Shown here in pieces: positions 4,865 through 53,250 of a stretch of 64,000 nt of DNA. The translations under genes were made by a program, and so were the position numbers. The notes under the pieces were generated by a model that did not search any database, was not told where the DNA came from, and was given only the letters and a program-made list of their open reading frames with translations. The stretch lies in the NCBI RefSeq assembly GCF_055900595.2, contig NZ_CM148325.1. The stretch is one strand, 5' to 3'. Each line of letters opens with the position of its first letter. Within the stretch, counting starts at the first letter, position 1.

Positions 4865-5088
4865 ACCTGAAAGTGAGTCCTTCTGGTGTTGTGAATAGTC
4901 CCGCGCTGGTCGTTTTCAGCGGCAAGAAAGTGCTTATTTATGACCGCTCACTCTAGACAATATTTATTAATAATCCAATTGTTGAACTCAGAGAATATGC
5001 ATTAATCGGCAATTTTTTTATGTCGATGGGATGAGCCTGATTCGTTTGTAAAATCAGGCAAATTTTTGCAAAGGCAGATAGTCAAAAT

Positions 5089-6432: not shown

Positions 6433-6648
6433 AATGTCTGCCTCCAGTGGTCAGTAATCTGGAGTGTAGGTAACCGCATTCACTCTGGCGGGAAGAATTT
6501 GCAAACTGTGATCTCGCCGCGAAAACATCAATATTATCCATTTCGCTGTAACACAATTGCTTTATTTGTTAATAATATTTTGCAACTAAGTTATCATAAT
6601 CAAACAACTTCACTTGTCAGCGACACTGCTTCGTTTTTAACATCGCTT

Positions 6649-7572
6649 ATGGAAAAAAATAGTCTGTTTAGTCAGCGCATCCGTTTGCGCCACCTTCATA
6701 CATTCGTAGCTGTCGCACAACAAGGAACTTTGGGGCGCGCGGCTGAAACCCTTAATTTGAGTCAACCTGCGCTCTCTAAAACATTGAATGAACTGGAGCA
6801 GCTGACGGGCGCTCGCTTGTTTGAGCGTGGTCGTCAGGGGGCGCAACTTACCTTACCCGGCGAACAATTTTTAACACATGCAGTCAGAGTTCTTGACGCT
6901 ATTAACACTGCCGGACAGTCGCTTCATCGTAAAGAAGGTCTTAACAATGATGTCGTCAGGGTAGGTGCATTACCTACCGCGGCGCTGGGAATATTACCTT
7001 CGGTTATAGGTCAGTTTCATCAGCAACAAAAAGAGACGACCTTGCAAGTTGCGACAATGAGTAACCCTATGATTCTGGCGGGTTTGAAGACTGGCGAAAT
7101 CGATATCGGCATTGGTCGGATGTCAGATCCTGAACTGATGACCGGGCTTAATTATGAACTGCTGTTTCTTGAATCGCTGAAGCTGGTCGTCCGCCCTAAT
7201 CACCCGCTACTTCAGGAGAACGTAACGCTAAGCCGGGTGCTGGAATGGCCGGTTGTTGTATCACCAGAAGGCACTGCGCCACGCCAGCATTCAGATGCAT
7301 TAGTGCAGAGCCAGGGCTGTAAAATTCCTTCGGGCTGTATCGAAACACTGTCTGCTTCGCTATCTCGTCAACTTACGGTTGAATACGACTACGTGTGGTT
7401 TGTCCCTTCTGGCGCTGTAAAAGACGACCTGCGTCATGCCACGCTGGTGGCCCTGCCTGTTCCGGGTCATGGTGCAGGCGAACCGATTGGAATACTGACC
7501 CGCGTAGATGCGACGTTCTCTTCTGGTTGCCAGTTGATGATTAACGCTATTCGAAAATCAATGCCGTTCTGA
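6649..7572 (+). CDS. ydcI: LysR-family transcriptional regulator YdcI
   Basis: ORF track 6499..7572 has an implausible N-terminal extension; canonical start MEKNSLFSQRIRLRHLHTFVAVAQQGTLGRAAETLNLSQPALSKTL (HTH) at 6649. Confidence 0.88.
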   Translation: MEKNSLFSQRIRLRHLHTFVAVAQQGTLGRAAETLNLSQPALSKTLNELEQLTGARLFERGRQGAQLTLPGEQFLTHAVRVLDAINTAGQSLHRKEGLNNDVVRVGALPTAALGILPSVIGQFHQQQKETTLQVATMSNPMILAGLKTGEIDIGIGRMSDPELMTGLNYELLFLESLKLVVRPNHPLLQENVTLSRVLEWPVVVSPEGTAPRQHSDALVQSQGCKIPSGCIETLSASLSRQLTVEYDYVWFVPSGAVKDDLRHATLVALPVPGHGAGEPIGILTRVDATFSSGCQLMINAIRKSMPF

Positions 7573-7576
7573 AAGG

Positions 7577-7603
7577 TGAAGGGATCTGTCGATCCCTCCT
7601 TTA
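7577..7603. terminator. Hairpin between convergent ydcI and trg (gggatc-tgtc-gatccc, T-rich flank)
   Basis: Inverted repeat with T-rich 3' flank on plus strand, lying between two convergent stop codons. Confidence 0.45.
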
Positions 7604-7609
7604 ACATTT

Positions 7610-9250
7610 TCACACCGTAGCGAAACTAACTGGTTCACCAGCTCCGCGAGGTTCTGCCGACACAGAATGTTTGTTCAGACGGAATACGTCCACCGCCTCA
7701 GTTAATCGTGCAGCCTGTTCTTCAAGGGACACCGCCGCCGCTGAGGCCTCTTCTACCAGAGAAGCATTCTGTTGCGTCACCTTATCCATTTCGGAAATCG
7801 CCTGGCTCACCTGCGTTATGCCTCTGCTTTGCTCATCCGAGGCGGCGGCAATCTCCTGCATGATATGTGTGACACTCGCGACGGCATCAACAATAGTGCT
7901 CATGGTTTTCCCTGCCGTTGCTACCTCATCCGATCCCAGGTCAATTAATCTGACTGATTCACTGATCAAGCCTTCAATCTCTTTTGCCGCCTGAGCGCTG
8001 CGGCTTGCGAGTGTCCGTACTTCGCTGGCGACAACGGCAAATCCACGTCCTTGCTCACCCGCTCGCGCGGCTTCAACGGCAGCATTCAGTGCCAGAATAT
8101 TCGTCTGGAAAGCAATACTGTTGATGACGGAAGTGATCTCGGAAATTTTCTTCGAACTCGTGGAGATAGCGCCCATCGTTTTTACTACACCGGAAACCGT
8201 CTGCCCGCCATCGCTGGCTTTAATAGAAGCCTCTTGCGCCAGTTTGCTGGCATGATGCGCGTTATCCGCATTCTGTTTCACCGTTGCAGTGAGTTGCTCC
8301 ATGCTGGCGGCAGTTTGTTCGATTGCCGCCGCTTGTTCTTCGGTGCGAGATGACAGGTCCGCATTGCCAGCGGAAATTTCGCTGGTGCCACGATAAATCT
8401 CTTCCGCGCCCTGTCGAACGGTCCCTACAGTCATCCCCAGTGAATGCTGCATTTGCTGTAAATGATGACTTAAGCGACCGATTTCATTACGACCCGCCGG
8501 TTCATCATTCATCGTCAGATCGCCACTGGCAATTTTTTCAATCCGTTGTGCGGCATGTTGCAGTGGACGAATGACGATCCGACGTAGCACCATAAATGTT
8601 ATCAGCGTCATGACCACGGCAAGCACAAACGCGCCAATCATAAACATCACACCCAGGCGGGTACGCTGATGGGCCTGTTCCGCCAGTTGGTTGGCTCTGG
8701 TGCTACGTATCTTAACGGCTTTGTTCAAAATATCGGTATAAGCATTATCCAGCGGTCGGATCTGCTCACTTTCATGATTGATAATCGCCTCAAACATGCC
8801 ATTTTTGGCATATTTCAGCATGGGTTGGATACCCGTGATATAAGCCTGGAAACGTTGATTTAATTCAGCCTCGAGAGCTTCATCAGCAGGTGTTTTCACC
8901 GGCCGACTCCGGTAAGCCCGATAACCTTGCTGCGACTGTTTAATCTCCGATTCGGCTTGCGCAATATTTCGCTTCATTGCTTCCATTTCCGCAATACGAC
9001 TCGCGGCCCCGGCCTGAATCATATTGATCCGGGCCGAACGCAAAAAATCTGAGCTGTTCGCTAACCCGGTCCGAACCTCAATCTCTGCAGTCACATCACG
9101 CTGATCGCGATCGGCCTTCCAGAGGAAATAGCCAGCCAGGGCTGAACTCAAGGCAAACAGAAGTAAGATACCGCCAAGAATGCAGGCAAATAACGGAACC
9201 AGCCTGATGTGATGCAAAAAACCTAATCGCTGTGAGGGAGTTGTATTCAT
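7610..9250 (-). CDS. trg: Methyl-accepting chemotaxis protein III (ribose/galactose sensor) Trg
   Basis: 546 aa; two TM segments, HAMP, methyl-accepting signalling domain with conserved motifs ([21 protein letters not shown]). Confidence 0.93.
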
Positions 9251-9524
9251 TACCGTTGTCTCTCGTCCAGGTTTACTCCTGATAGAAAGTCATCGGCACT
9301 TGACGGTAATTACTTATGACCAAAAACCTCTTTGCGTCACATTTTTACAACAATTATGGCAGAGAAGAATAATGCCATTGGAATGAAGAGAGTAACGAAC
9401 GGCTAAACCGAATGACGAAAAATTCTGGAAAACAGCACGCAATTTCGTCAAGTGATTATTTTCGTCCCTAAGGAAACCTCATAGGATGCCTGCGGGTGCC
9501 TGAGACTTTCTGTTTTCAGGCTAA

Positions 9525-9581
9525 CCGGGAATCAGAAAGACGAAGGCCCCGACCGATATTTCTATCAACCGAGGCCAACGA

Positions 9582-9592
<11 letters not shown>
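9525..9592 (-). ncRNA. sokB: SokB antisense RNA of the hokB/mokB type I toxin-antitoxin locus (approximate extent)
   Basis: Minus-strand promoter-like TTGCCG-17 nt-TAACAT reading antisense across the mokB start; ends are approximate and unverified. Confidence 0.3.
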
Positions 9593-9789
<197 letters not shown>

Positions 9790-9860
9790 GGGCAAGCGCG
9801 GGGATTTTCCCCGCGCATCTGACTAGCAGATTCATTTTCTCATGGCACCCCTTTTACACT

Positions 9861-10034
9861 TCAGTTAGTGCATGTTTTTTTCGATGCACTAATAGAACCA
9901 TCATTACAGACAAATTTGCCACCTGCCGTACAGTGTGAGATCCCCCCTTTCGAACCAGAACAGGGTTTGCGCCCGGCATCGGCATAAAAGGAAACAAGCG
10001 CTCCCATAACCAAGATAAGTGCCAATTTTTTCAT
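9861..10034 (-). CDS. ydcA: Small lipoprotein-like protein YdcA
   Basis: 57 aa MKKLALILVMGALVSFYADAGRKPCSGSKGGISHCTAGGKFVCNDGSISASKKTCTN with SD upstream; below ORF-track cutoff. Confidence 0.75.
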   Translation of the reverse strand: MKKLALILVMGALVSFYADAGRKPCSGSKGGISHCTAGGKFVCNDGSISASKKTCTN

Positions 10035-10204
10035 ATAACCTCCATGGTTTATCGAATCTTATGTTCGATTTGAACGTTATACGCTGGTTTATTTTGATAC
10101 CGTTGATGAGATCAAAGATCGGGTGAATTGATTAAAGATAAGCCAGATGGACATATGGACAAGGATTATGGTTTTATTTGTCATACAAATAAATATAATA
10201 GGCG

Positions 10205-10269
10205 CTTCCGATGTAGGCCCGTATTCTTCGCCTGTACCACGGGTCGGTTTTAGTACAGGCGTTTTCTTT
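10205..10269 (+). ncRNA. rydC: RydC small regulatory RNA
   Basis: Approx. 65 nt: CTTCCGATGTAGGCCCGTATTCTTCGCCTGTACCACGGGTCGGTTTTAGTACAGGCG + TTTTCTTT, pseudoknot-capable hairpin plus U-tract, convergent on the cybB stop as in E. coli. Confidence 0.8.
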
Positions 10270-10278
10270 AAAGATCCT

Positions 10279-10809
10279 TCAGGAACGTTTACGCGGCATC
10301 ATGCGTAGAAGTGTGTTGTCCTTCCAGAAATAGTGGTGTGCCAGTGCAGCCGCAGCGTGCAACCCGATGACAAAATATCCCAGATTCGCCAGCGTCTCAT
10401 GCCACCACTTTAAGCTATCAACCCGTTCGAAATTGGCCTCTGCTGCATAAGGCATTGTCATACCAAACGCAAACCACGGGTTGCCCCGGTTATACATCAT
10501 CACCAAACCAATCACTGGCAGCGCAATAAACAGGAGATAGATCACCAAATGTCCCAAATGTGCCAGTCCCGTCATCATCGGTTTTGGTTTAGGTACAATC
10601 GGCGGAGTCGGGTTTTTAAGCCTTAACAAAAGACGAACAACCATCAGCACGAGAATTGAGATGCCACAGGAAACATGAATCATGTTGATGAGCGGCCGAT
10701 CGCTACGTGGGAAGAAACCACGAAACTCCATTGCGCAATACGCTGCGATAACCAACAAAAAGACCAGCCAGTGAATGCTGATTTGTAACCTTGAGTATTT
10801 ATTTTCCAT
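10279..10809 (-). CDS. cybB: Cytochrome b561 CybB
   Basis: ORF 10279..10845; canonical start MENKYSRLQISIHWLVFLLVIAAYCAMEF at 10809; four-TM di-haem cytochrome b561 pattern. Confidence 0.92.
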   Translation of the reverse strand: MENKYSRLQISIHWLVFLLVIAAYCAMEFRGFFPRSDRPLINMIHVSCGISILVLMVVRLLLRLKNPTPPIVPKPKPMMTGLAHLGHLVIYLLFIALPVIGLVMMYNRGNPWFAFGMTMPYAAEANFERVDSLKWWHETLANLGYFVIGLHAAAALAHHYFWKDNTLLRMMPRKRS

Positions 10810-10997: not shown

Positions 10998-11999
10998 ATG
11001 AGTAAAGTTGGTATTAACGGTTTTGGTCGTATCGGTCGACTGGTGTTGCGTCGATTACTTGAAGTCAAAAGTAACATAGACATTGTCGCTATTAATGATC
11101 TCACTTCCCCAAAAATTCTCGCCTACCTGCTGAAACATGATTCAAACTACGGACCGTTCCCCTGGAGCGTTGATTTTACGGAAGATTCACTTATCGTTGA
11201 TGGAAAAAGTATCGCGGTTTACGCCGAAAAAGAGGCTAAAAATATTCCATGGAAAGCGAAAGGCGCAGAAATCATTGTCGAATGTACTGGCTTTTATACC
11301 TCCGCCGAGAAATCGCAGGCGCACCTTGATGCTGGTGCGAAGAAGGTGTTGATTTCCGCCCCTGCCGGTGAAATGAAAACCATCGTTTATAACGTCAATG
11401 ACGACACACTGGATAGCAACGACACCATTGTTTCCGTGGCGTCATGCACCACTAACTGTCTTGCACCGATGGCCAAAGCCTTGCACGACAGTTTCGGAAT
11501 AGAAGTCGGCACGATGACGACCATTCATGCCTATACTGGCACCCAGTCACTGGTGGATGGCCCGCGAGGTAAAGATCTACGCGCTTCACGTGCAGCGGCA
11601 GAAAATATCATTCCCCACACTACAGGCGCGGCAAAAGCCATTGGTCTGGTGATCCCAGAACTGAGCGGCAAACTGAAAGGTCATGCGCAACGCGTACCCG
11701 TGAAAACAGGTTCGGTGACTGAACTGGTGTCTATTCTTGGAAAAAAAGTGACTGCCGAAGAGGTGAACAACGCGCTTAAAAACGCGACAAACAATAACGA
11801 GTCATTTGGTTATACCGATGAAGAAATAGTCTCTTCTGATATCATTGGCAGCCATTTCGGGTCGGTGTTTGATGCCACGCAAACCGAAATTACCACCGTG
11901 GGCGATTTACAGCTGGTGAAAACGGTCGCCTGGTATGATAACGAATATGGCTTCGTCACGCAGCTTATTCGCACCCTCGAAAAATTCGCTAAACTCTGA
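10998..11999 (+). CDS. gapC: Glyceraldehyde-3-phosphate dehydrogenase C, intact reading frame
   Basis: 333 aa uninterrupted ORF with GAPDH hallmarks (NGFGRIGR Rossmann motif, catalytic [10 protein letters not shown]). Confidence 0.9.
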
Positions 12000-14474: not shown

Positions 14475-14863
14475 GGTTCCTCCTTATCGTTCCCTTAAGA
14501 ATACTGCGTGAGATAATAATGAGAAGCGGAGCACTCTGAAAGGAAGATGATGCTTTTTCTATCGCGCCATCGCGAACCAGACACTGGTTTTAGTCATACT
14601 GTATTTGCGGAGAAACTGTTGATAAAACATCAATAACATAATGTTGTATCATTTTTAAATGATAGATAATCTGGTGTGATATTTATATAATATTCATTCT
14701 TATATTTCTCAATCAAGGGGAACATTTGCAACACGCTCATTAGTGGTAATTCCTTAAATTTTAATTGAATAATATCTGCTCTCAGCTATAAACTACTATC
14801 TGTCTATGGTGCCGAATTACCATTTTTATTCATCAACACAATGCTATATGTCGAGAAACATAC

Positions 14864-15358
14864 ATGGAAAAAATATTTCAACTTTTAGAAACCGCCTGGC
14901 CTGCCGTAAAAGCAACAGGACTTACAGGTTGCGTAACCGCTCCAGAAACTGAAGATAACCTTCTTTTATTTGAGGATAAATACGCGACACATATTCCAAA
15001 AGACTATCGGCAGTTATTATCTCATTTTGGCGCATGTCATTTTGCCGATCCTCAAATTTATACTTTGAATGATCTGGACAGATATTACCCTCTATTTTTT
15101 CAACAATGGGAAGAGTATAAAAAAGAATATCCATCATTGAACAACATTGATCCTTTTCCTGTTGGCAGTTTTGGCGACGGGAGTGTCGCTTTTCTTGACC
15201 GCAACAGCCTAAAAATTTATATTCTAATTCATGATTTTGGTATATTTACCGATGATGTTGGTGATTTCCCTTGTGAGTTATGCTTTGAAAATTTTGGTGA
15301 GTTAGTGGAAATGCAAGTTGAAATGATTCTTTATTTACAGCAATATCATGTATCATGA
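14864..15358 (+). CDS. SUKH / SMI1-KNR4 family protein (candidate orphan immunity protein of a polymorphic-toxin system)
   Basis: 164 aa; motifs IPKDYRQLLSHFGA and PFPVGSFGDGSVAFLDRNSLKIYILIHDFG resemble the SMI1/KNR4 fold; lies in an AT-rich insert between ydcF and hrpA. Confidence 0.55.
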   Translation: MEKIFQLLETAWPAVKATGLTGCVTAPETEDNLLLFEDKYATHIPKDYRQLLSHFGACHFADPQIYTLNDLDRYYPLFFQQWEEYKKEYPSLNNIDPFPVGSFGDGSVAFLDRNSLKIYILIHDFGIFTDDVGDFPCELCFENFGELVEMQVEMILYLQQYHVS

Positions 15359-15395
15359 ATAATAAAATTATCACTCATGTTCTTACTGAAAAAAA

Positions 15396-15656
15396 GTGAA
15401 TTCTATAGCAGAGAAATATTGTAAAATGTATAATCTTAATAGCTCGTTAGCATACCAAATCACGGCTATTAAATTTCTTCCTGATGGTATGAAATCATTC
15501 GGCCTTGATGTTCCATTATGGATGGTCGTCAGAGATGTTAACGGTTGGGATGATATGGAAATTACGATTTTTATTTGTGACAAAAATAGTGAAGTTCTTT
15601 GTTGCAGTAATATTTGGTATCCAGTATATCGTCCTCATCAAGCAGATTTGTTATAA
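15396..15656 (+). CDS. Hypothetical small protein (86 codons, GTG start) in AT-rich insert
   Basis: ORF-track frame MNSIAEKYCKMYNLNSSLAYQITAIKFLPDGMKSF...; no recognisable family; codon usage atypical; could be a second immunity-type gene or non-coding. Confidence 0.3.
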   Translation: MNSIAEKYCKMYNLNSSLAYQITAIKFLPDGMKSFGLDVPLWMVVRDVNGWDDMEITIFICDKNSEVLCCSNIWYPVYRPHQADLL

Positions 15657-27641: not shown

Positions 27642-28502
27642 TTATTCTCGCGAAATACCGTCCAACGTAGACAACACGTCCGCAGAAAGATGCAATTTTT
27701 CTGAGGCCATATTCTCCCGTAAATGAGCAACAGAAGACGTTCCTGGGATCAGCAAAATATTCGGTGAACGTTGTAACAGCCACGCCAGCGCCACCTGCAT
27801 TGGTGTTGCACCCAGGCTCGCAGCAACATCGGAAAGCGTGGAGGATTGCAGCGGCGTAAAGCCCCCGAGCGGAAAGAACGGCACGTAGGCAATGCCGTCA
27901 CGAGCCAAAGCATCAATCATTGCGTCATCAGCACGATGAGCAATGTTGTATTCGTTCTGCACACAGACAATTTCGGTAATCTTACGCGCCTCTGCAACCT
28001 GCGTCGGTGTGACGTTGCTCAGGCCAATATGTTTTACCAGGCCTTGTTGTCGCATCTCTGCCAGCACGGTCAGGCTGGCTTCAATCGATCCTTCCGCTGG
28101 GCCATGACCATCCCCCATCATAACGCGCAGGTTAACCACATCCAGTACGTCCAGTCCGAGATTACGTAGATTATCGTGTACCGCTTTTTGCAACTCTGCC
28201 GGAGAAAATGCGGGCAACCAGGAGGCGTCCTCTCCACGCCGCGCCCCAATTTTAGTAACAATGGTCAGGTCGTCAGAGTAAGGATAAAGCGCTTCGCGGA
28301 TAATCTGATTGGTGACGTGCGGACCATAAAAGTCACTGGTATCAATGTGATTGACGCCCAATGCTAGCGCCTCGCGCAGAACGGTTATAGCGACGTGGCG
28401 ATCTCTGGGCGGGCCGAAAACCCCAGGACCTGCCAGTTGCATCGCGCCATAACCAAGACGGTTAACGGATTTTGTACCGAGAGTAAATGTGTTGCTGCTC
28501 AT
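27642..28502 (-). CDS. pdxI: Aldo-keto reductase, pyridoxine 4-dehydrogenase PdxI (YdbC)
   Basis: 286 aa AKR family protein. Confidence 0.9.
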   Translation of the reverse strand: MSSNTFTLGTKSVNRLGYGAMQLAGPGVFGPPRDRHVAITVLREALALGVNHIDTSDFYGPHVTNQIIREALYPYSDDLTIVTKIGARRGEDASWLPAFSPAELQKAVHDNLRNLGLDVLDVVNLRVMMGDGHGPAEGSIEASLTVLAEMRQQGLVKHIGLSNVTPTQVAEARKITEIVCVQNEYNIAHRADDAMIDALARDGIAYVPFFPLGGFTPLQSSTLSDVAASLGATPMQVALAWLLQRSPNILLIPGTSSVAHLRENMASEKLHLSADVLSTLDGISRE

Positions 28503-28632
28503 CGCACCCTGCCCTGTAATAAAACGAATTCAGAAAAATCAGTATAGAAATGAAAAGAGATAAATAATGCGAAGGCGTAAACAAGATTACTGGATGAGTT
28601 GCTCTATTGTCCTGAAAAACACCAAAACAAAA

Positions 28633-28655
28633 CGCGTCAAGCGCCGCATCCGGCA
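28633..28655. repeat. REP (repetitive extragenic palindrome) element
   Basis: GCGTCAAGCGCCGCATCCGGCAA, typical E. coli REP consensus. Confidence 0.6.
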
Positions 28656-28690
28656 ATAAAAAACCGCAACCTGTATCAGCGTTGCGGTTT
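28655..28690 (-). terminator. Intrinsic terminator of ydbA
   Basis: On minus strand AACCGCAAC-loop-GTTGCGGTT followed by TTTTTTATT, 20 nt after the ydbA stop. Confidence 0.7.
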
Positions 28691-28709
28691 ATGCATCACA
28701 TACTAAAAA

Positions 28710-31700
28710 TTAGAACGTTTTCTTGAAGTTCAGCATCACGCCTTTATCGCTGATACCATCCTCTTTCCAGTGGTAAGCATCCAGATTCAGCGAACTTTCT
28801 TTGCTGCTGTACTTCACGCCGACGCTTGCCAGACTGTTGATGCCGCCGCCCTTTTGCCCATCATCGACATTAAAGTGCTGGCTGCCTGCGCCTGCCAGGC
28901 TTGCCGTGCGCTGGCTCTTGCTGTAGCTGAGGTTCGGCCCACCTTCCAGCGCGGCGTTCGCACTCCAGCCGTCTTTGCCTGCGTAGTCCAGCTTCAGCCC
29001 AACGATGCTGTCCACCGCCGTTTCGCTGCCGCTGTTCATGCTCAGGTTAAAGTCTCCGGCATTGCGCTCCTGATAGTCGCCTTCCAGCATGTGACGCAGT
29101 TTCAGACCCGCATATGGCGTGATTTTCAGCCCTTCGCGCGGTTCAAAGGTTTTCGCCCCTTCGCTACGGAACTCCAGGTACTGTTGTTTCACATTCGTGT
29201 CTGCCGTCTTACTGATGTCGCCGTAAGCCACCGAACGGCTGCTGTCCAGTTGGTGAATATCGTAACGCAGCGCGTTATTCCAGCTCATACCGTTGTCAAA
29301 GGACATCTGATGCTTCAGGCCAAAGAACTGGCTGTAGCCGCCTGTAACACCATTATCACCCGCTTTCTGCGCACCGTCGCCGTCCAGACGGGCGATACCG
29401 TACTCCAGGCTCATGGTCTGGTTTTCGCTCAGGTCGAGGGTTTTACGCAGCGCCAGCATGTCGTACTCGGTATTGTTACCCAGCTCAGCACGCGGATCGC
29501 CTTTCGCCACCACGTTAAATGCCAGAGCGTTGCCCATCTTCGGTGCGGCGTCTGCCAGCATACTAAAGCGATTGCTTAACACACGCGCTTCGCGGAATAC
29601 CGTGGTCGCCTGGCTACCGCTAATTTGCTTAAGTGCGCTGTTCAGCTCTGCAGTGGTGCCGACGTTCAGACTGGTATACAGCTCATTGTTGGTGTAACCC
29701 GCATCCAGCGCTTTTGCCACGTCATTCACTGAGGCATCCGTCGCCACATCGGTGTAGGCTTTTTTGCTCATGGTCACGTCAACGTTGCCGCTGGCGTCGG
29801 TACTGCCTGTCGCCTGCCAGACAACAGATGTCGAAGTGATCGCTTGCGCATCGGTCAGGTTGCTGCCTTGCACCACATCATCAAAGCTGGCGGTTTTGTC
29901 CGCCGTTCCCGCCGCAAAAGCAGTGTTGATCTCCACGCCTTTCATACTGGCGTTATTGACCATCAGCTTACCAGCGCTACCATCGGCGTTCGTCCCCACC
30001 ACGTAACCATTGAGGTTGTTCATGCCATCGTTGCGGCTAACGGAAGAAGAATGACTGTCGTCGTATGGCGTAATGGTGGGTTCTTCCGGCGCGGTAAAGT
30101 CGACATAGTGTACTTCCGTACCGTCTCCCCCTTCACCACTGCCCTCCATCACCGTGCCAGATTGTTTAATTAATCCGGAACCATTCACGCTGTCGTCAAT
30201 ATAAACAGTGCCGTTGTTAACAATATGACCATTGCTCCCGAGCTTGCTGAAGGCATATGAATTGCTGGCATATATATTGATGGTGCCGTTATTCTCAATC
30301 ACCGCATCAGCCGTGGCATCGGACTCCAGTTGCATCCCTATCATGCCTGTCCTGCTGGTTCCTTGCGTGCCAACGTTTATGGTGCCGTTGTTGATCATTT
30401 TGGCTTTACCGTGCGCCGACATCGCCACATTACTATTTTTGTCGATATTAATAATGCCGTCGTTTATTGCCTTGCTGGCCGTGTTTGATGTCAGGATCTG
30501 CCCGTTGATGACGCCAGACTGGCCATTATAGAACGTATGCCCATCACCACCGGTGCTAATTCTCATGTCACCTTCAACTGTCCCCCAGTTATTAAAATGT
30601 CCTGTCCACAGCGCATTCGTCGCCACCGTTGCCACACCGCCTTCCAGATTGTTGAAGGTGCCACCTTTATCAACCGATGCGTTATGTACGGTACCAGCAT
30701 TATTGAAGGTAGAGGCTGCAGCAAAAGTTATTTTCTCTACTTTTCCACCGGCCTGATTATTCATTACGGCAGACCCGGAAGAACATTTCCAGGCATTCAC
30801 CGTTCCGGTGTTATAAAAACGGCTGGCCCACTGGTCAACCGTGTTGATGCTGCCTGAGTTGTGAATAATCGATCCTGCAACAGTCGTTCCGACTTGCCCG
30901 GTCACCATACCTTCGTTAGTGAACACTCCGCCATCCACAGAAACAGTTTTTGTCGTGCCGTGGTTGGTGTATTCCCCACCCGTTGCGATATCAACCTCAT
31001 TAATACTGCCCGTGGTTTCATTGACCAGATGACCAAAGTCAGCCACGGTGACAGGTCCCCCGGTGACCGTACCCGTGTTTGTTACCAGGGTTTCGGCGGT
31101 TGCCGTGATATCAGTAGTACCGCCATATGAAGACAGGTTAAGCGTTTCCCCGTCAGCCGTAATAATGTCACCATTTCTCCAGCTTAATGAAACAAACCCA
31201 TCAGTCGAGTTATAGGCGTTATTGTCCTGGCAAATACCAAAAGTACAGATGGTCCCGTAATTAACAATAGTCCCGCTGCCATCGTTATAGAACGCCTGCC
31301 CGTTTTCAGCATTAATATTGATGATGCCCGTCTGATCATTAATCGCAGTGGCACCATTGTAAACAGCCATGCCGACCAATTTATTTGGCCCCAGCGTATC
31401 ATCATCATTTTCATTTACTTCCAGATTTATAGTTCCCTGGTTAATAATAATGTTACCTGGCTTCATCGCAGCCATACCGGCACCGGAATTATAGAGTGTT
31501 ATTTCACCACCCTGCTGATTAATGGCGGTAGAATTAACGCTGGCACCAGAACTGTCTGTACCCACAGCCATCCCGACAGCATAATCTTTGGCGCTGTCAT
31601 GAGCGATATTGGACGCCAGACTGGAAGTATCGTTTTCATCAACCCATAATGCGTCAATGAAAATCTTACCCATATTGTCAATGGTTGAATTATTGGAGGC

Positions 31701-34202
31701 CAGCATGCCAACACTCCCCCGGCCGTACATTTGGATCTCACCGGCAGTATTATTTAAAGCGGTGCCATTGTTGCCTGCCGTCATCCCCGTCAGACTAATG
31801 ACTTGATTATTAAAAATTAAAGGGTCACTCAAACCTTGAGCGTTCAGACTATTGAAAATACGTCCCTGCGCGAGTACCTTACTGGTGATGGCACTGTTAT
31901 TAACAACTCGACCACCATAGACGCTCAAATACGCAGAACTAGCAGAGTCTGATGTATTCCCCTCTACGCCGTAGATAGAAATCGTTACGTTGTTATTATT
32001 TACAGCTAGCGACTCTTCACCAGTAGCCCTGGCAAAGCCAATATTACCCAGTTCTACATCACCATTATTTATCATCTGCGAACCGGAATTCACCAGTACA
32101 ACCTGTGATGTGTCACTATTATAATGATCAAATGTATTTATATCTTTTAGGATAAAAGTGGCGTTGCGGCCAAGTTCTAAATGGGCTCGGTTATTCAGTT
32201 GAATGATATCGCCTAATCCAAGCGGAAAAACACCACTGATTGTTGAATCCCCATTTAGATACAGAGTAGAGTGCCCATCGATTTTGATAACAGGCGTATC
32301 GCCATAACCATTACGTTTTAAAGCAGGTGTGGAGCCATCCTGTAGAGTATTTTCTTCGCCAGCTAAATGGATACCACCATTAATTTCGACGGTATTACCG
32401 TCACCCGACACAACCAGACCATTAATATTTTCCTGGCTGCCATCCATTTCATTATAGCTACGAGAAGTGACTTCACTGTCAGCAACAATGGTAAGATTGC
32501 CATTTAATACGATATTATTGTCGTGTCCCTGCACCTGAATGCCAACAGAAGGGGTAAAAAAGTCATTTATTGAATGCTCTCCGGCCTGATTTTTATCCAC
32601 CAGAATATTACCGGTAATTTCAACTTCATTGCCATCACCGGCTACATTTACCCCTGTCGCAACACTGCCAGTCACATTAAGCTCATTTGTCGCCAGCGTC
32701 ATGGCGTTATTATTTCCAGACACATCCAGACCGGTTGAATAATCCCCTACATCCACACGGCCAGCCAGAGAAATCAGACCATCATCTCCAACGACGCGAA
32801 TCCCGGTACTGAAATTATTAGCAATGATGTCCCCCACATTGATAAGAGTAGAATGATTACCCTCAATCAGAATCCCTGTCGCATTGGCCTCTGAACTACC
32901 ATTACTGACGGAAATATCCCCCCTGTTAATGAACGTCGACGCATCACCACTGAGAGAAACACCCAGCGAATTTTCATCCACGACCGTTATATTGCCTTTA
33001 TTGCTGACGATCGCGCCATTACCCTCAACATCAATACCCCGTGCAGCATTGCTAACGTATAAATCCCCTTCCTGTATAACCGTCGCATTATTACCAACGA
33101 TTTTGCTGCCCGTTGAATTTTGCCCATCAACCGTCATATGTCCTTTATTATCGGTCCTGACATCATTACCGCTAATAACGGCCCCTATTCCGCCGTTATT
33201 GACAGTGGAGTCGCCAGTGTTATTTAAGATTGTACGATCGCCATTGACGATAACCGCCGTGCCAGCATCGACCACCGTCTGACCGTTATTATTGATGGTT
33301 ATATTATCGCCGGTCAGGATACCGACCACCGAATCTTCACCGACAGCCTCTGTTTTACCCTCGTTTGTCAGCGCAATGTTGTTACCATTAATCATCATCA
33401 CCGTGCCGCCATTCAGGGCCGTGTTACCGCCCTGGTCAGTGATAATCGCATCATTAACGGTAATTATTCTGCCCGTTGTTCCATCAGACACGACACTGGC
33501 TAACTGTGTGACGTGGAGTTTACCTTCGTCATCGTAGCGCCATTCCATATCACCTGTGGTACTCACACCACTAAAGATGGCGGTATGAGTCTCTTCATGG
33601 TTTTCCCACTCTGTCACAATGGTTTTTCGGCCATCTTTTGCCGACAGCGTGTAGCTACCATCGACATTCTGTATATAGGTGAACGTTGCCCCGCGAATCT
33701 TCAGGGTTTGCGCGTCCTTGTCCCATGTCACATTGTTATCAAAGACAACGGGTTCTGTTCTCGGTAGGTCAACATCATCACCGCTATTGTCGGGTGGAAT
33801 AACATTACCGCCGTTATCTGGCTTTACAGGTATACCTGAATCTTCATCACTGGGAACGGGTAGCGGTAGAGGGCCATTATCATCTGGCGGTATGGGCTGG
33901 GGAAAAGAAGAGTGAGCAGAATGATCATTGTCATGAGACAATTCAATCACTGCGAGTGTTGCCAGTACCGCCGTGGCACCTAATGCCAGTAACGAGCTGA
34001 AACCATTATTTGTAACAACAGCACATTTTTCTGGCACTGTTTTCAACTTCGTTGACGGTCGGGCGTGCCCTTCTGACTGACATGTCATTTGAGAGCTTCT
34101 GCGCATACTGTCTGCACTCTCGCCTTCTGTTATTTCCGCCCCCCAGCTTTGGCCACTTAACGCTATAGCGATACACGCTGATAATAACGTTTTCTTTTGC
34201 AT
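28710..34202 (-). CDS. ydbA: YdbA autotransporter (type Va) with long beta-helical repetitive passenger and C-terminal beta-barrel, uninterrupted
   Basis: 1830 aa single ORF; signal peptide; Pro-rich linker; many degenerate ~20-aa Gly/Asn/Thr/Val-rich repeats (NNGTINV...-type); C-terminal barrel ending ...MLNFKKTF. Confidence 0.88.
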   Translation of the reverse strand: MQKKTLLSACIAIALSGQSWGAEITEGESADSMRRSSQMTCQSEGHARPSTKLKTVPEKCAVVTNNGFSSLLALGATAVLATLAVIELSHDNDHSAHSSFPQPIPPDDNGPLPLPVPSDEDSGIPVKPDNGGNVIPPDNSGDDVDLPRTEPVVFDNNVTWDKDAQTLKIRGATFTYIQNVDGSYTLSAKDGRKTIVTEWENHEETHTAIFSGVSTTGDMEWRYDDEGKLHVTQLASVVSDGTTGRIITVNDAIITDQGGNTALNGGTVMMINGNNIALTNEGKTEAVGEDSVVGILTGDNITINNNGQTVVDAGTAVIVNGDRTILNNTGDSTVNNGGIGAVISGNDVRTDNKGHMTVDGQNSTGSKIVGNNATVIQEGDLYVSNAARGIDVEGNGAIVSNKGNITVVDENSLGVSLSGDASTFINRGDISVSNGSSEANATGILIEGNHSTLINVGDIIANNFSTGIRVVGDDGLISLAGRVDVGDYSTGLDVSGNNNAMTLATNELNVTGSVATGVNVAGDGNEVEITGNILVDKNQAGEHSINDFFTPSVGIQVQGHDNNIVLNGNLTIVADSEVTSRSYNEMDGSQENINGLVVSGDGNTVEINGGIHLAGEENTLQDGSTPALKRNGYGDTPVIKIDGHSTLYLNGDSTISGVFPLGLGDIIQLNNRAHLELGRNATFILKDINTFDHYNSDTSQVVLVNSGSQMINNGDVELGNIGFARATGEESLAVNNNNVTISIYGVEGNTSDSASSAYLSVYGGRVVNNSAITSKVLAQGRIFNSLNAQGLSDPLIFNNQVISLTGMTAGNNGTALNNTAGEIQMYGRGSVGMLASNNSTIDNMGKIFIDALWVDENDTSSLASNIAHDSAKDYAVGMAVGTDSSGASVNSTAINQQGGEITLYNSGAGMAAMKPGNIIINQGTINLEVNENDDDTLGPNKLVGMAVYNGATAINDQTGIININAENGQAFYNDGSGTIVNYGTICTFGICQDNNAYNSTDGFVSLSWRNGDIITADGETLNLSSYGGTTDITATAETLVTNTGTVTGGPVTVADFGHLVNETTGSINEVDIATGGEYTNHGTTKTVSVDGGVFTNEGMVTGQVGTTVAGSIIHNSGSINTVDQWASRFYNTGTVNAWKCSSGSAVMNNQAGGKVEKITFAAASTFNNAGTVHNASVDKGGTFNNLEGGVATVATNALWTGHFNNWGTVEGDMRISTGGDGHTFYNGQSGVINGQILTSNTASKAINDGIINIDKNSNVAMSAHGKAKMINNGTINVGTQGTSRTGMIGMQLESDATADAVIENNGTINIYASNSYAFSKLGSNGHIVNNGTVYIDDSVNGSGLIKQSGTVMEGSGEGGDGTEVHYVDFTAPEEPTITPYDDSHSSSVSRNDGMNNLNGYVVGTNADGSAGKLMVNNASMKGVEINTAFAAGTADKTASFDDVVQGSNLTDAQAITSTSVVWQATGSTDASGNVDVTMSKKAYTDVATDASVNDVAKALDAGYTNNELYTSLNVGTTAELNSALKQISGSQATTVFREARVLSNRFSMLADAAPKMGNALAFNVVAKGDPRAELGNNTEYDMLALRKTLDLSENQTMSLEYGIARLDGDGAQKAGDNGVTGGYSQFFGLKHQMSFDNGMSWNNALRYDIHQLDSSRSVAYGDISKTADTNVKQQYLEFRSEGAKTFEPREGLKITPYAGLKLRHMLEGDYQERNAGDFNLSMNSGSETAVDSIVGLKLDYAGKDGWSANAALEGGPNLSYSKSQRTASLAGAGSQHFNVDDGQKGGGINSLASVGVKYSSKESSLNLDAYHWKEDGISDKGVMLNFKKTF

Positions 34203-34848
34203 GAGAAATCCTTTTCAATGAATGACATTTCAAATAATAAAATATGAGTAATAGATAAGAAATAGCCACAGGCTGTGTCATGATTTAATGTCTGCTCTTG
34301 AAATTTTATTTAGCAATCCCAGAACATTCAACTTAATTAGTATTTCGAAACCTCAATGTAGACACATAAAAAACAAATTATTCGATTACTTAGGCTATTT
34401 GTTGCATTATTACACATCCTCTAACAATAATCAGACAAAAAGCAATGTCAGCGTCAAATTGGGTAGCTGATTCATATTACTGACCACTCCGGAAATTCAT
34501 TCATCGTGAAAATATTAACATTTCAACCATGTTCCATTTAATCAACCCACTGAAAATCTGGAGGTTATCTACTGCGGTTTGTTGTTGACTGCCCCTGACA
34601 GGTTTACCAGGCGTTGACAGAAGATGAGGCTTGCAAGATGCTAAAAACAATGTGGTGTTACAAGCAATCCCATAAACCTCGTAACTTCACTGAAATGAGC
34701 GATGCCGTCCATATTTGGGTTGACTATAAAAACCCTTAATATTGAGGTTGATGATGATATTCATGATGGCATTGGAAAAATAGGACACCCATAAAATATC
34801 TATACAGCCTTTAAATTAAATCATTGAAATATCGCTGTTGCATAGTGC

Positions 34849-35172
34849 TTATTTTTGCAACCATTTCCCGTTAATTCCCTGCACATATTCCCCCGGTTTG
34901 GCCCGAGCTACAAGCTTTTGCCCGGCGAGTTTCGCGATATCATCTACCGAGACATTATTTTGCTTTGCCAGTTGTTGGTAACTCACTTTACGTGCGGCAT
35001 TAATCTCGGTTACTAATTTCTCTGTTTCAGCATCCGTTTTCAACGCAACCAAATAACCGTTAAATGTTTCACCTACCCGCCCCTGGGTTCTGGCCTCGTC
35101 CAGTGTTAATGCCACTACATTGCTGCTTACCAGTCCAACAAGAAACGCACAAAGAAGTAATGTTTTCTTCAT
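34849..35172 (-). CDS. ydbL: YdbL (DUF1318) periplasmic protein
   Basis: ORF 34849..35253; canonical start MKKTLLLCAFLVGLVSSNVVA (signal peptide) at 35172. Confidence 0.88.
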   Translation of the reverse strand: MKKTLLLCAFLVGLVSSNVVALTLDEARTQGRVGETFNGYLVALKTDAETEKLVTEINAARKVSYQQLAKQNNVSVDDIAKLAGQKLVARAKPGEYVQGINGKWLQK

Positions 35173-43792: not shown

Positions 43793-43821
43793 ATGCTCTG
43801 GATAAGGATAATCCAATTCTA

Positions 43822-43930
43822 AAAAAAAGCCCGGACGACTGTTCGGGCTTGTCTTTTTATATGTTGGAAAATCAGTGGCAATGCAATGGCCCAACAGAAA
43901 ATAAAATCTGTGACAATAAAGGCATATAAC
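43822..43930 (-). ncRNA. micC: MicC small RNA (represses ompC)
   Basis: Minus-strand GTTATATGCCTTTATTGTCACAGATTTTATTTTCTGTTGGGCC...AGCCCGAACAGTCGTCCGGGCTTTTTTTT; divergent from ompN. Confidence 0.85.
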
Positions 43931-44157
43931 CCGCGCAGAATAACGTATAGCAAATTAAAAGTATAATTTTTATTTTGTATGTATTATCTTCGATACATTC
44001 ACCAGGCTTATTATCATTTCAGAGGAATTATTTGATTAAGGTTTTACTTAAGGCGTAACAAATGATATTTATCGGCTAACTGAACTTCTCCTTTAGGATG
44101 TTTTCACTCCCCGAAATGGGGATAAAAGGCAAATAAAATAACTAAAGGATTTATTCA

Positions 44158-45350: not shown

Positions 45351-45866
<516 letters not shown>

Positions 45867-45873
45867 CACTAAC

Positions 45874-45898
45874 GCCCGCACATTGCTGCGGGCTTTTT
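45874..45898 (+). terminator. Intrinsic terminator of uspF
   Basis: GCCCGCA-cattgc-TGCGGGC followed by TTTTT. Confidence 0.75.
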
Positions 45899-46041
45899 GA
45901 TTCATTTCGCAAATGTGCTGACATTTTCCCCTCTAATCCGTACCATACACGCCACAGTTTTTATATCAGATTTCTTATGCTGGGCGTTCCGGCATGACGC
46001 ATACTCTTCTGATGCCATATAACGAATTGAGTCGCTTTTAA

Positions 46042-46977
46042 ATGTCGCAAAATCAAGAAATTAGTAAGAAAGAACAATACAACCTGAACAAATTACAAAA
46101 ACGTCTGCGTCGTAACGTGGGCGAAGCCATTGCTGACTTCAATATGATTGAAGAAGGCGATCGCATCATGGTTTGCCTCTCCGGGGGTAAAGACAGCTAT
46201 ACCATGCTGGAGATTCTGCGCAATTTGCAGCAAAGCGCTCCAATCAATTTTTCGCTGGTGGCTGTTAACCTCGATCAAAAGCAACCGGGCTTCCCGGAAC
46301 ACGTTCTGCCCGAGTATCTTGAAAAGCTGGGCATTGAGTACAAGATTGTGGAAGAGAACACTTACGGTATCGTGAAAGAGAAGATTCCGGAGGGCAAAAC
46401 CACTTGCTCACTGTGTTCTCGTCTTCGTCGCGGAATTCTTTACCGTACCGCAACGGAACTGGGAGCGACGAAGATCGCGCTGGGTCACCATCGTGACGAT
46501 ATCCTGCAAACGCTGTTCTTAAATATGTTCTATGGCGGCAAGATGAAAGGTATGCCACCGAAACTGATGAGCGATGATGGCAAACATATTGTGATTCGTC
46601 CGCTGGCCTACTGTCGCGAGAAAGATATTCAACGCTTTGCCGATGCAAAAGCGTTCCCGATTATTCCGTGCAACCTGTGCGGTTCACAGCCTAACCTGCA
46701 ACGTCAGGTGATTGCTGACATGTTGCGTGACTGGGATAAACGTTATCCGGGGCGTATCGAGACGATGTTCAGCGCGATGCAGAATGTGGTGCCGTCGCAT
46801 CTGTGCGATACCAACCTGTTCGATTTCAAAGGCATTACCCACGGTTCTGAAGTGGTTAACGGGGGTGATCTGGCGTTTGATCGCGAAGAGATCCCTCTAC
46901 AACCGGCGGGTTGGCAGCCTGAAGAAGATGAAAATCAGTTGGATGAGTTACGACTGAATGTGGTTGAAGTGAAATAA
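46042..46977 (+). CDS. ttcA: tRNA 2-thiocytidine(32) synthetase TtcA
   Basis: 311 aa, PP-loop SGGKDS and CxxC Fe-S motifs. Confidence 0.93.
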
Positions 46978-48736: not shown

Positions 48737-48862
48737 AGGCAAAAAAAAGCCGACTCATCAAAGTCGGCGTCGTACGAATCAATTGTGCTATGCAGTAATT
48801 CAAAAAAGGAAGTAAGACAATATGGAGCGCAACGCCCATCGCTTGACGTTGCATTCACCTGC
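48737..48862 (-). ncRNA. fnrS: FnrS small RNA (FNR-activated anaerobic regulator)
   Basis: Minus-strand GCAGGTGAATGCAACGTCAAGCGATGGGCGTTGCGCTCCATATTGTCTTACTTCC...GCCGACTTTGATGAGTCGGCTTTTTTTT with intrinsic terminator. Confidence 0.88.
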
Positions 48863-52239: not shown

Positions 52240-52334
52240 ACCGGCGCAGAGGAGACCATGCCGGATTTAAGACGCGGATGCACTGCTGTGTGTACTGTAG
52301 AGTCTGGCGGATGTCGACAGACTCTATTTTTTTA
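52240..52334 (+). ncRNA. mcaS: McaS (IsrA) small RNA
   Basis: ACCGGCGCAGAGGAGACCATGCCGGATTTAAGACGCGGATGCACTGCTGTGTGTACTGTAGAGTCTGGCGGATGTCGACAGACTCTATTTTTTTAT with terminator hairpin and U-tract, between smrA and abgR. Confidence 0.85.
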
Positions 52335-52341
52335 TGCAGTT

Positions 52342-53250
52342 TTAACTTTGCAGATAGCCGCATTCTCGCCGAAATTGCGTGATTAATGACGCGGTCAGTG
52401 GTGTCTGGCGACTATCACGCCGCTGAATCAAATAATAGGCCGCTTTCGGTAAAATTTCGCTAACCGGCAACATCACCAGCCCCTGTCCGTGCAAGGGATC
52501 GCAGCCCATTTCTTCAGGTAGTATGCTGAGAAAATCGCTTTTTGCCACCAGACTGATACAGGCTGAAAACGTCTCGCAGACTACGCCGACCTGTGGCGTT
52601 TGCGCCTGATCGTCAAGCAATTCACTCAACTGTTTGTAGTAGCTGCCGTGTGGCGTCGGCATTGTCCAGCTGTAGTCCAGTAACTGTTTGATCGAACGGG
52701 CACCAATGGCGGGATGTCCCGGGCGGCAAAAGATCGCGAATTGCTTTTCCAGTAATTTCTCAAAAGTAAATTCGTGGTCGTAGGGTCCCTGATAATAGGT
52801 ATTGATGGTGAAATCCAGTTCTCCCTGTCGCAATTCATTAATCATCGACACCAGTTGCCCTTCCATAATGCGTACTTTTACCTGCGGATGCTGCTGATGA
52901 AAACGAGATATGACAGCTGGCATCAGACTGCGGGAAATACTGGCCCCCATGCCGATATTAATTTGCCCTGCCAGTTGCCCTTGTCGTTGGCGAATATCCT
53001 CTTGCGCTGCGCGCAGCTCTTCAAGAATAAGACTGGCGTGCTGATAAAAACTTTCACCGGCATCAGTTAACGTCACGCCTTTACTACGGCGAAAAAAGAG
53101 TTGCGCCGCTAACCCTTCTTCCAGCTCCTGAATAGATTTACTCAGTGCCGGTTGCGACATATTCAACATGCGGCTCGCTCCGCGAATGCTGCCCTGACGA
53201 GCCACTTCAACAAAAGCCCGAATTTGATGAATTTTTACCTGAAAAGCCAT
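52342..53250 (-). CDS. abgR: LysR-family regulator AbgR
   Basis: 302 aa, N-terminal HTH, divergent from abgABT. Confidence 0.92.
   Translation of the reverse strand: MAFQVKIHQIRAFVEVARQGSIRGASRMLNMSQPALSKSIQELEEGLAAQLFFRRSKGVTLTDAGESFYQHASLILEELRAAQEDIRQRQGQLAGQINIGMGASISRSLMPAVISRFHQQHPQVKVRIMEGQLVSMINELRQGELDFTINTYYQGPYDHEFTFEKLLEKQFAIFCRPGHPAIGARSIKQLLDYSWTMPTPHGSYYKQLSELLDDQAQTPQVGVVCETFSACISLVAKSDFLSILPEEMGCDPLHGQGLVMLPVSEILPKAAYYLIQRRDSRQTPLTASLITQFRRECGYLQS

Follow-up and report, generated by a model that had tools for sequence, protein, structure and literature searches.

An intact ydbA gene in a rare, apparently mosaic allelic form, and its probable product, a classical autotransporter of the BigA/YdbA family

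In Escherichia coli K-12, the gene ydbA (b4492) is annotated in three pieces, i.e., it is a pseudogene split by the insertion sequence (IS) elements IS2D and IS30C. Full-length ydbA is found in about 42% of phylogroup A (PMC4951805), and an intact copy is not unusual. In a study of K-12, ydbA was among the genes transcribed more in an rpoZ mutant (PMC5811629). The related Salmonella protein BigA is named in the literature only as an autotransporter adhesin or adhesin candidate, and we found no functional test of it there. Here we describe the ydbA gene within a stretch of 64,000 nucleotides from contig NZ_CM148325.1 of NCBI RefSeq assembly GCF_055900595.2 (hereafter, the window). Our reading, to which we assign a probability of about 0.85, is that this ydbA is intact and selectively maintained, that its product is a classical (type Va) autotransporter of the BigA/YdbA family, and that the copy represents a rare, mosaic allele.

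The gene was first pointed out in a sequence-only reading of the window, which described a single uninterrupted open reading frame (ORF) of 5.5 kb and 1830 aa and stated that the K-12 copy is split by IS2 and IS30. Both statements were accurate. The ORF occupies exactly positions 28,710 to 34,202, begins with ATG, and spans 5493 bp; it lies on the minus strand, which that reading had not given. A run of 1830 codons without a stop would arise by chance with a probability that we calculate as about (61/64)^1830, or roughly 1e-38. The predicted protein differs from RefSeq WP_032302967.1 at two amino acids, position 710 (M, where RefSeq has V) and position 909 (G, where RefSeq has C). Its neighbors are ydbH-ynbE-ydbL on one side and pdxI(ydbC)-ydbD-ynbA-D on the other, a set of flanks that is K-12-like apart from the paa block, and the protein aligns collinearly with K-12 YdbA at 57% overall identity. 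Because the gene sits in the slot between ydbH-ynbE-ydbL and pdxI-ydbD-ynbA, and because its product matches K-12 YdbA at 85-97% identity over the C-terminal ~430 aa, it is the orthologue of b4492 by position and collinear homology. A nearly identical protein (WP_032302967.1), the gene, and the family domains are already known in RefSeq, Pfam, and NCBIfam.

The sequence-only reading had also proposed a C-terminal autotransporter barrel and had named a domain search as the check on it. When the full-length protein was searched with hmmscan, the PF03797 barrel was not reported even at E<=10. In contrast, when the C-terminal 329 aa (28,713-29,699) were scanned alone, PF03797 was matched at E=3.2e-19, with 70.1 bits against a cut-off of 26. 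We would like to note that the full-length scan alone would have wrongly failed this check, which had been set beforehand. An AlphaFold2 (AF2) model of residues 1340-1830, built on a 63-sequence alignment, had a mean predicted local distance difference test score (pLDDT) of 87.6 and a predicted template modeling score (pTM) of 0.80, and consists of a beta-sandwich, several helices, and a 12-strand barrel whose pLDDT is mostly above 90. Directly ahead of the first barrel strand, residues 1534-1552 form a 19-residue helix. The top Foldseek matches to this model were the translocators of EstA, AaaA, EspP, NalP, BrkA, and Hbp (E 1e-10 to 1e-6, probability 1.00). The protein thus has the 12-strand barrel that defines type Va (classical monomeric) autotransporters. 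By analogy with EspP and NalP, the linker helix would sit inside the barrel pore.

For the passenger, the AF2 model of residues 140-1339 (pLDDT 91.3, pTM 0.74) begins with an N-terminal domain of eight strands; some 117 short strands come next, which make up about 39 rungs of three strands each. The eight strands, at residues 158-233 with pLDDT about 90, correspond to the BigA_N domain, and the strands of the BigA_beta domain were modeled at residues 1394-1480 with pLDDT above 90. Foldseek searches with the passenger model returned only Fap2 and Ag43 at E<=1e-3, with TibA, EtpA, and pertactin next. In composition the passenger is rich in Gly (13.9%), Asn (12.5%), and Thr (9.7%), as had been noticed from the letters. 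No Pfam repeat family or pectate-lyase family was found in the passenger and the N-terminal 151 aa when scanned at E<=10, where the only match was a chance-level one to TrbK, and no sequence relative of the YdbA protein was found among PDB chains. Two other autotransporter classes were considered and rejected. The serine protease autotransporters of Enterobacteriaceae (SPATE) do not apply, as no Peptidase S6 domain was matched in Pfam at E<=10. The AIDA-I/Ag43-type self-associating class, with its sequence repeats of ~19 aa, does not apply either: neither a Pfam repeat family nor an internal BLASTP match was found, and the resemblance to Ag43 and TibA is at the level of the fold only.

Membership in the BigA/YdbA family is given by two Pfam domains, BigA_N (PF25784) and BigA_beta (PF25783), both of which are present, making the protein a BigA/YdbA-family type Va autotransporter. 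The NCBIfam model NF033178 (auto_BigA) aligned with residues 465-1830 only and scored 960.5 bits, far below its 3400-bit cut-off, and we therefore regard the protein as a family relative and not as BigA itself. A single-sequence search with residues 631-1830 retrieved only 201 representatives at E<=1e-3 among 1.84 billion, which places the barrel in a small, divergent branch; the representatives with a named source are all enterobacterial (Escherichia, Citrobacter, Enterobacter, and Salmonella). Within the protein database there are hundreds of full-length YdbA clusters. The window protein belongs to a cluster of 113 members, the named ones all being Escherichia and nearly all E. coli, and shares 95% identity with the cluster representative. 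Identity falls to 57-58% with most E. coli YdbA proteins and to 64-65% with those of E. albertii.

The passenger had been described from the sequence as highly repetitive, with dozens of degenerate beta-helix repeats that would make the gene prone to recombinational length variation. Of this description the beta-helix survives, as the ~39 rungs of the AF2 model, and the sequence repeats do not. Tandem Repeats Finder (TRF) returned one trivial 36-nt match in the gene, and a search for dispersed DNA repeats gave only short matches of 16-39 nt at 60-88% identity. At the protein level, self-BLASTP gave no off-diagonal match at E<=1, and a BLOSUM autocorrelation of the passenger had no dominant period. 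The rungs, in other words, repeat in structure only, and since no DNA repeats lie within the window allele, repeats are not a source of length change in it. Such repeats do occur in other alleles. K-12 ydbA has a 294-nt tandem unit in 3.2 copies at 90% identity, absent from the window allele, and the common alleles of E. coli and E. albertii carry between 3 and about 19 copies of a perfect decapeptide of the type PPDDGGDTPV in their Pro-rich linker. In the allele of E. coli strain ES5, this decapeptide is encoded by 30 nt in 11.8 copies (positions 4762-5112 of the extracted ES5 locus). Because the decapeptide copy number varies, the lengths of family proteins step by 10 aa from 1861 to 1971. 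The repeats ascribed to the window allele may be those of these others (the 294-nt unit of K-12 or the 30-nt unit of the common alleles). A Pro-rich segment, which had also been claimed, is indeed present at about residues 98-150, with Pro making up 10% of residues 1-150.

These results also bear on whether the uninterrupted ORF might be an assembly artefact, with a repeat region collapsed or wrongly joined. Large repetitive adhesin genes are often misassembled, and draft Salmonella assemblies frequently contain N-terminal BigA fragments that stop at a contig end, but the window allele has no DNA repeats that could collapse. Moreover, the 5493-bp gene recurs at 99.9% identity in eight complete genomes that were assembled independently and come from different countries and hosts, and at 94-98.6% in another four, and the whole 50-kb neighborhood is collinear with E600003 at 99.97%. 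We consider an artefact extremely improbable.

To what extent the gene is maintained was assessed with Nei-Gojobori dN/dS against four intact relatives, with dS from 0.03 to 0.46 and 40-437 synonymous changes. The ratio was 0.15-0.27 overall, which places the protein under purifying selection; it was 0.21-0.33 in the passenger and 0.07-0.14 in residues 1399-1830, which include the barrel. The gene is intact in four of the five more divergent copies of the allele type that were checked, and eight further genomes carry it at 99.9%. The remaining copy, that of E. coli 2020CK-00188 (NZ_ABACVG020000001.1, 4814396-4819895), is of the same allele type at 95% identity and has indels that result in a frameshift and two coding sequences (CDSs). 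It shows ongoing pseudogenisation of this allele type.

One could argue from that copy that ydbA in the window is intact but cryptic, i.e., that it is silenced (H-NS acting on the AT-rich spacer would be one way), is without effect under most conditions, and is heading for decay of the kind seen in K-12. Consistent with this, K-12 ydbA is broken by two IS elements, the gene is full-length in only the proportion of phylogroup A cited above, and the window allele has a degenerate N-terminal motif and degenerate linker repeats. The spacer has a GC content of 0.37-0.41, and its promoter-like matches are not above chance. However, dN/dS values of 0.15-0.27 over 5.5 kb, with the numbers of synonymous changes given above, speak for long-term purifying selection, in whose absence a frame of 1830 codons would not stay open, and all of the family domains are present and modeled with high confidence. 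We therefore hold a cryptic gene to be unlikely, though it has some weight, and prefer a maintained one.

The distribution of the allele was surveyed in 5426 complete E. coli genomes. The ydbA flanks are present in 5422 of these, while the window allele (at least 80% covered) is found in 17: eight at 99.9%, four at 94-98.6%, and five at about 90%. In 3079 additional genomes the match is limited to some of the 3' end, in most cases the final ~1.3 kb (the barrel region), at ~80-88% nucleotide identity, bringing the number of E. coli genomes that share the barrel-end match to 3096. The 646-bp spacer upstream of the gene is confined to the same 17 genomes, even by a sensitive search for distant matches. 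Thus, the 5' 4.2 kb of ydbA and the upstream spacer travel together, whereas the barrel end, like both flanks, is almost universal. We found no similarity between the spacer and the K-12 paaY-ydbA upstream region, no convincing small ORF within it, nothing in Rfam from 28,400 to 35,000 at E<=1, and, in a promoter and terminator scan, no more promoter-like matches than in shuffled sequence.

Comparison among family proteins gives the same impression. The window protein is near-identical to family representative P0001 save for residues 1101-1300 (68-71%) and to P0002 save for residues 501-1000 (41-82%), and every allele converges to 85-100% identity after residue ~1400. Because these identity profiles are patchy, we infer segment exchange between alleles. 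The allele is thus rare and, judging from sequence comparison, mosaic, and the barrel end with pdxI, and ydbL on the opposite side, would act as recombination anchors. The sequence-only reading missed both the distance of this passenger from that of K-12, to which it is only 40-57% identical, and the rarity and mosaic nature of the allele. Public annotation of the locus needs some care. E. coli ES5 (NZ_CP133871.1) has an uninterrupted ydbA ORF of 1964 aa (4417-10311 of the extracted locus) that RefSeq annotates as two "partial" pseudogene pieces, and in two other genomes the barrel region is labeled "EntS/YbdA MFS transporter", apparently a mix-up of the names ydbA and ybdA. In view of these cases, we regard pseudogene calls and product names at ydbA as unreliable.

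The N-terminus holds the most unusual part of the protein. A signal-peptide-like N-terminus had been claimed and is present as read from the sequence (MQKKTLLSACIAIALSGQSWG/AE), with a KK n-region, a hydrophobic core, and an SWG/AE site, all conserved in the family, although the picture is complicated by a second hydrophobic segment at residues 66-88. Across 21 diverse family members, the N-terminal plan is fixed: a signal peptide, a Cys pair, a hydrophobic stretch, a polar patch, and Pro-rich repeats. The Cys loop has the consensus CPxxxxxL[ST]xxExxxKLPxxC, and its 19-residue Cys spacing is retained in most family representatives. The hydrophobic stretch is 17-20 residues long, Gly/Ala-rich, and frequently begins with W-x-W; it is followed by a polar Asp/His/Gly/Ser patch. 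Salmonella BigA carries the same module, and a profile of the module matches BigA N-termini at E about 1e-25. A profile search for the module on other architectures, limited to proteins sharing 5-residue words, gave only BigA/YdbA N-termini, mostly contig-end fragments, and among Pfam models and the literature we found none that covers a module of an N-terminal Cys pair and hydrophobic helix. It appears, then, that all BigA/YdbA proteins carry an undescribed N-terminal module, which would lie at the very end of the passenger and is followed by a polar or Pro-rich linker whose length varies greatly.

The second hydrophobic segment is conserved in hydrophobicity throughout the family although its sequence varies. 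When values of the translocon insertion scale (Hessa et al. 2005) are summed without regard to position, its insertion free energy is ~-0.3 kcal/mol in the window protein and the family median is +1.9, and on these values it would be a marginal membrane segment. A single very long bipartite signal peptide spanning both hydrophobic segments was considered and is not favored: a small-x-small cleavage site is conserved at the first segment itself, and the Cys pair that lies invariantly between the two segments points to a disulfide formed in the periplasm or outside the cell. An extended signal peptide region (ESPR) was also looked for; residues 1-151 scanned at E<=10 gave no ESPR match, and the extra hydrophobic segment comes after, not before, a complete signal peptide. 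A stable inner-membrane anchor following a cleaved signal peptide is unlikely, because the passenger would then stay cytoplasmic. More probably, the stretch is exported and ends at the tip of the rod. There, it might act as a fusion-peptide-like helix that inserts into a host or neighboring membrane, or pair with another to cross-link cells, or else it might anchor the passenger transiently in the inner membrane while export proceeds, with a further cleavage behind the helix; we consider this group of roles distinctly unlikely, but any of the three, if true, would be a working mode not known for type Va autotransporters.

Taken together, the anatomy suggests the following course of export. The N-terminal signal peptide would direct the protein to Sec, and the C-terminal 12-stranded barrel (residues ~1560-1830) would be put into the outer membrane by the barrel assembly machinery (BAM), as expected from the family, with the helix ahead of the barrel presumably occupying its pore. 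The passenger would pass through the pore and fold as a rod of ~40 rungs at 0.48 nm each, roughly 20 nm in length, a fold that the AF2 model shows with high confidence, with BigA_N predicted to cap the far end of the rod and BigA_beta to lie at its base. We found neither an enzyme domain (protease, lipase, or other) nor an obvious motif for cleavage, and the most likely outcome is therefore a passenger that remains on the cell and serves as an adhesin or aggregation factor. Strain-to-strain variation would come from exchange of segments between alleles, from the copy number of the 30-nt linker repeat in other alleles, and from IS insertion or frameshift, not from repeats within the window allele.

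The right-handed beta-helix fold is not exclusive to adhesins, as it is also found in polysaccharide lyases and phage tailspikes, and alginate lyases of polysaccharide lyase family 6 (PL6) and the HK620 and Sf6 tailspikes were among the Foldseek matches. A passenger that binds or cleaves glycans, or that is some other effector, is nevertheless very unlikely: the PL6 and tailspike matches had probabilities of 0.05-0.33 and E above 1e-3, a level reached only by Fap2 and Ag43, and no Pfam enzyme domain was detected at E<=10. We thus return to a cell-attached adhesin. The suggestion that an intact copy could encode a functional adhesin fares well as regards a functional surface protein, which purifying selection and the full autotransporter anatomy make plausible, while the word adhesin is used by analogy.

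Several points weigh against our preferred interpretation of a maintained type Va autotransporter. The score against the NCBIfam BigA model falls far short of the cut-off. The second hydrophobic segment after the signal peptide does not fit a simple type Va export scheme. The CP motif of the N-terminal loop is CQ in the window allele and the linker repeats are decayed, which could mean relaxed constraint on the N-terminus, and dN/dS for residues 1-150 is noisy, ranging from 0.6 to 2.8 on very few changes. In the searchable literature we found no experiment on the function of YdbA or BigA. Finally, the region upstream of ydbA is AT-rich, and many of the autotransporter genes of E. coli are not expressed under laboratory conditions. 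The positions of all features of the locus are collected in Table 1.

Table 1. Features of the ydbA locus, with positions counted from the first nucleotide of the window.
Feature	Position	Strand	Basis or comment
ydbA CDS, 1830 codons + stop	28710..34202	-	Stop codon 28710-28712; boundaries equal those of RefSeq CDS WP_032302967.1 in near-identical genomes
Putative Sec-type signal peptide, residues 1-21 (MQKKTLLSACIAIALSGQSWG), probable cleavage before A22	34140..34202	-	Read from sequence; family keeps small-x-small sites, e.g., TWA/AD
Cys41...Cys60 loop (C-x18-C), probable disulfide-closed hairpin	34023..34082	-	Both Cys are invariant, and no other column is, when the N-termini of 21 diverse family members are aligned
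Second hydrophobic, TM-like (transmembrane-like) segment, residues 66-88 (FSSLLALGATAVLATLAVIEL)	33939..34007	-	Peak Kyte-Doolittle 19-residue window of the whole protein, 2.12
Asp/His patch and Pro-rich linker, residues 89-151	33750..33938	-	Decayed, non-repetitive version of the family decapeptide repeat; no tandem repeat found
BigA_N small beta-barrel domain, residues 152-232	33507..33749	-	Pfam PF25784, E=1.9e-25, 89.2 bits vs cut-off 24.5, profile 1-80/80
Beta-helix passenger, residues 233-1398, ~40 three-stranded rungs	30009..33506	-	AF2 and Foldseek
BigA_beta sandwich domain, residues 1399-1482	29757..30008	-	Pfam PF25783, E=1.4e-24, 86.1 bits vs cut-off 24.3, profile 1-84/84
Alpha-helical linker, residues 1483-1559, with a long helix (residues 1534-1552) right before the barrel	29526..29756	-	AF2, C-terminal 491 aa (helices at 144-213 of that segment)
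12-stranded autotransporter beta-barrel (translocator), residues 1560-1830	28713..29525	-	PF03797; AF2; Foldseek
Weak terminator-like hairpin, before pdxI, downstream of the ydbA stop	28630..28651	-	Consensus scan only; match count equals shuffled expectation
Allele-specific AT-rich spacer between ydbL and ydbA, 646 bp (promoter region, unmapped)	34203..34848	-	Replaces the K-12 feaR-feaB-tynA-paa-ynbG block

Elsewhere in the window, uspF and ttcA are adjacent (45,432-46,977). In K-12 the Rac prophage lies between ttcA and uspF, and the source strain therefore lacks Rac. An intact type I glyceraldehyde-3-phosphate dehydrogenase gene is found at the gapC position (10,998-11,999); gapC is a pseudogene in K-12. 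Between ydcF and hrpA (14,590-15,656), the annotation of the near-identical E600003 has a short truncated CDS fragment, an SMI1/KNR4-family gene, and a small hypothetical gene, and the interval looks like an orphan immunity-type cassette. Five small RNAs were detected at Rfam gathering scores: sok (sokB, adjoining hokB; 9494-9645), RydC (10,205-10,268), MicC (adjoining ompN; 43,813-43,933), FnrS (48,745-48,862), and McaS (52,240-52,335). E600003, the closest complete genome, has an IS200/IS605 tnpA insertion of ~705 bp between rimL and ydcH (2107-2811 of the extracted locus) that is not present in the window (~2812-2817). The abgR gene has an internal stop in E600003 and is open in the window (52,342-53,250).

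As a discovery, the intact gene carries little weight: intact ydbA is common outside K-12 and already annotated publicly, and the finding is in that respect ordinary. Its interest lies in what it says about the locus and the family. The ydbA gene is a hypervariable, mosaic surface-protein locus, for which the laboratory-strain picture of a dead pseudogene misleads. The allele in the window, being free of repeats, is a convenient and clonable representative for a first functional test of the YdbA/BigA family, and the conserved Cys loop with its hydrophobic helix is a concrete, testable oddity of the family.

Among known systems, the closest is K-12 YdbA (b4492), which lies in the same slot by pdxI-ydbD, has its domains in the same order, with the Cys pair and second hydrophobic segment at the N-terminus, and shares the near-identical C-terminal region described above. 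Unlike the intact copy in the window, it is split by IS2D and IS30C. With the IS elements removed and the three fragments joined, the K-12 frame is open and encodes 2020 aa as opposed to 1830 aa, with a passenger that is 34-57% identical over most of its length (57% overall) and a 294-nt x 3.2 tandem repeat that the window allele lacks. Upstream, K-12 has feaR-feaB-tynA-paa and ynbG, whereas the window has its unique 646-bp spacer. The common YdbA proteins of E. coli and E. albertii (e.g., P0057, P0104, and P0006) have the same locus, architecture, and barrel, but are 57-65% identical and have perfect decapeptide repeats where the window protein has a decayed linker. Salmonella enterica BigA (NF033178) shares BigA_N and BigA_beta, and its model aligns with residues 465-1830, although the window protein reaches 960.5 bits where the model cut-off is 3400.

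At a greater distance, Fap2 (9qe7), Ag43 (7koh), TibA (4q1q), and pertactin also have a long right-handed three-stranded beta-helix as passenger. They have no detectable sequence similarity to the window protein, and template modeling scores (TM-scores) are 0.13-0.37, low because the rods differ in length and bend. Pertactin has a polymorphic Pro-rich repeat region, as does the YdbA family. Finally, EstA (3kvn), EspP (2qom, 3slj), NalP (1uyn), BrkA, and Hbp are only 12-16% identical in sequence, and the window protein is without a SPATE-type protease domain, but all of them share with it a 12-strand barrel preceded by a helix.

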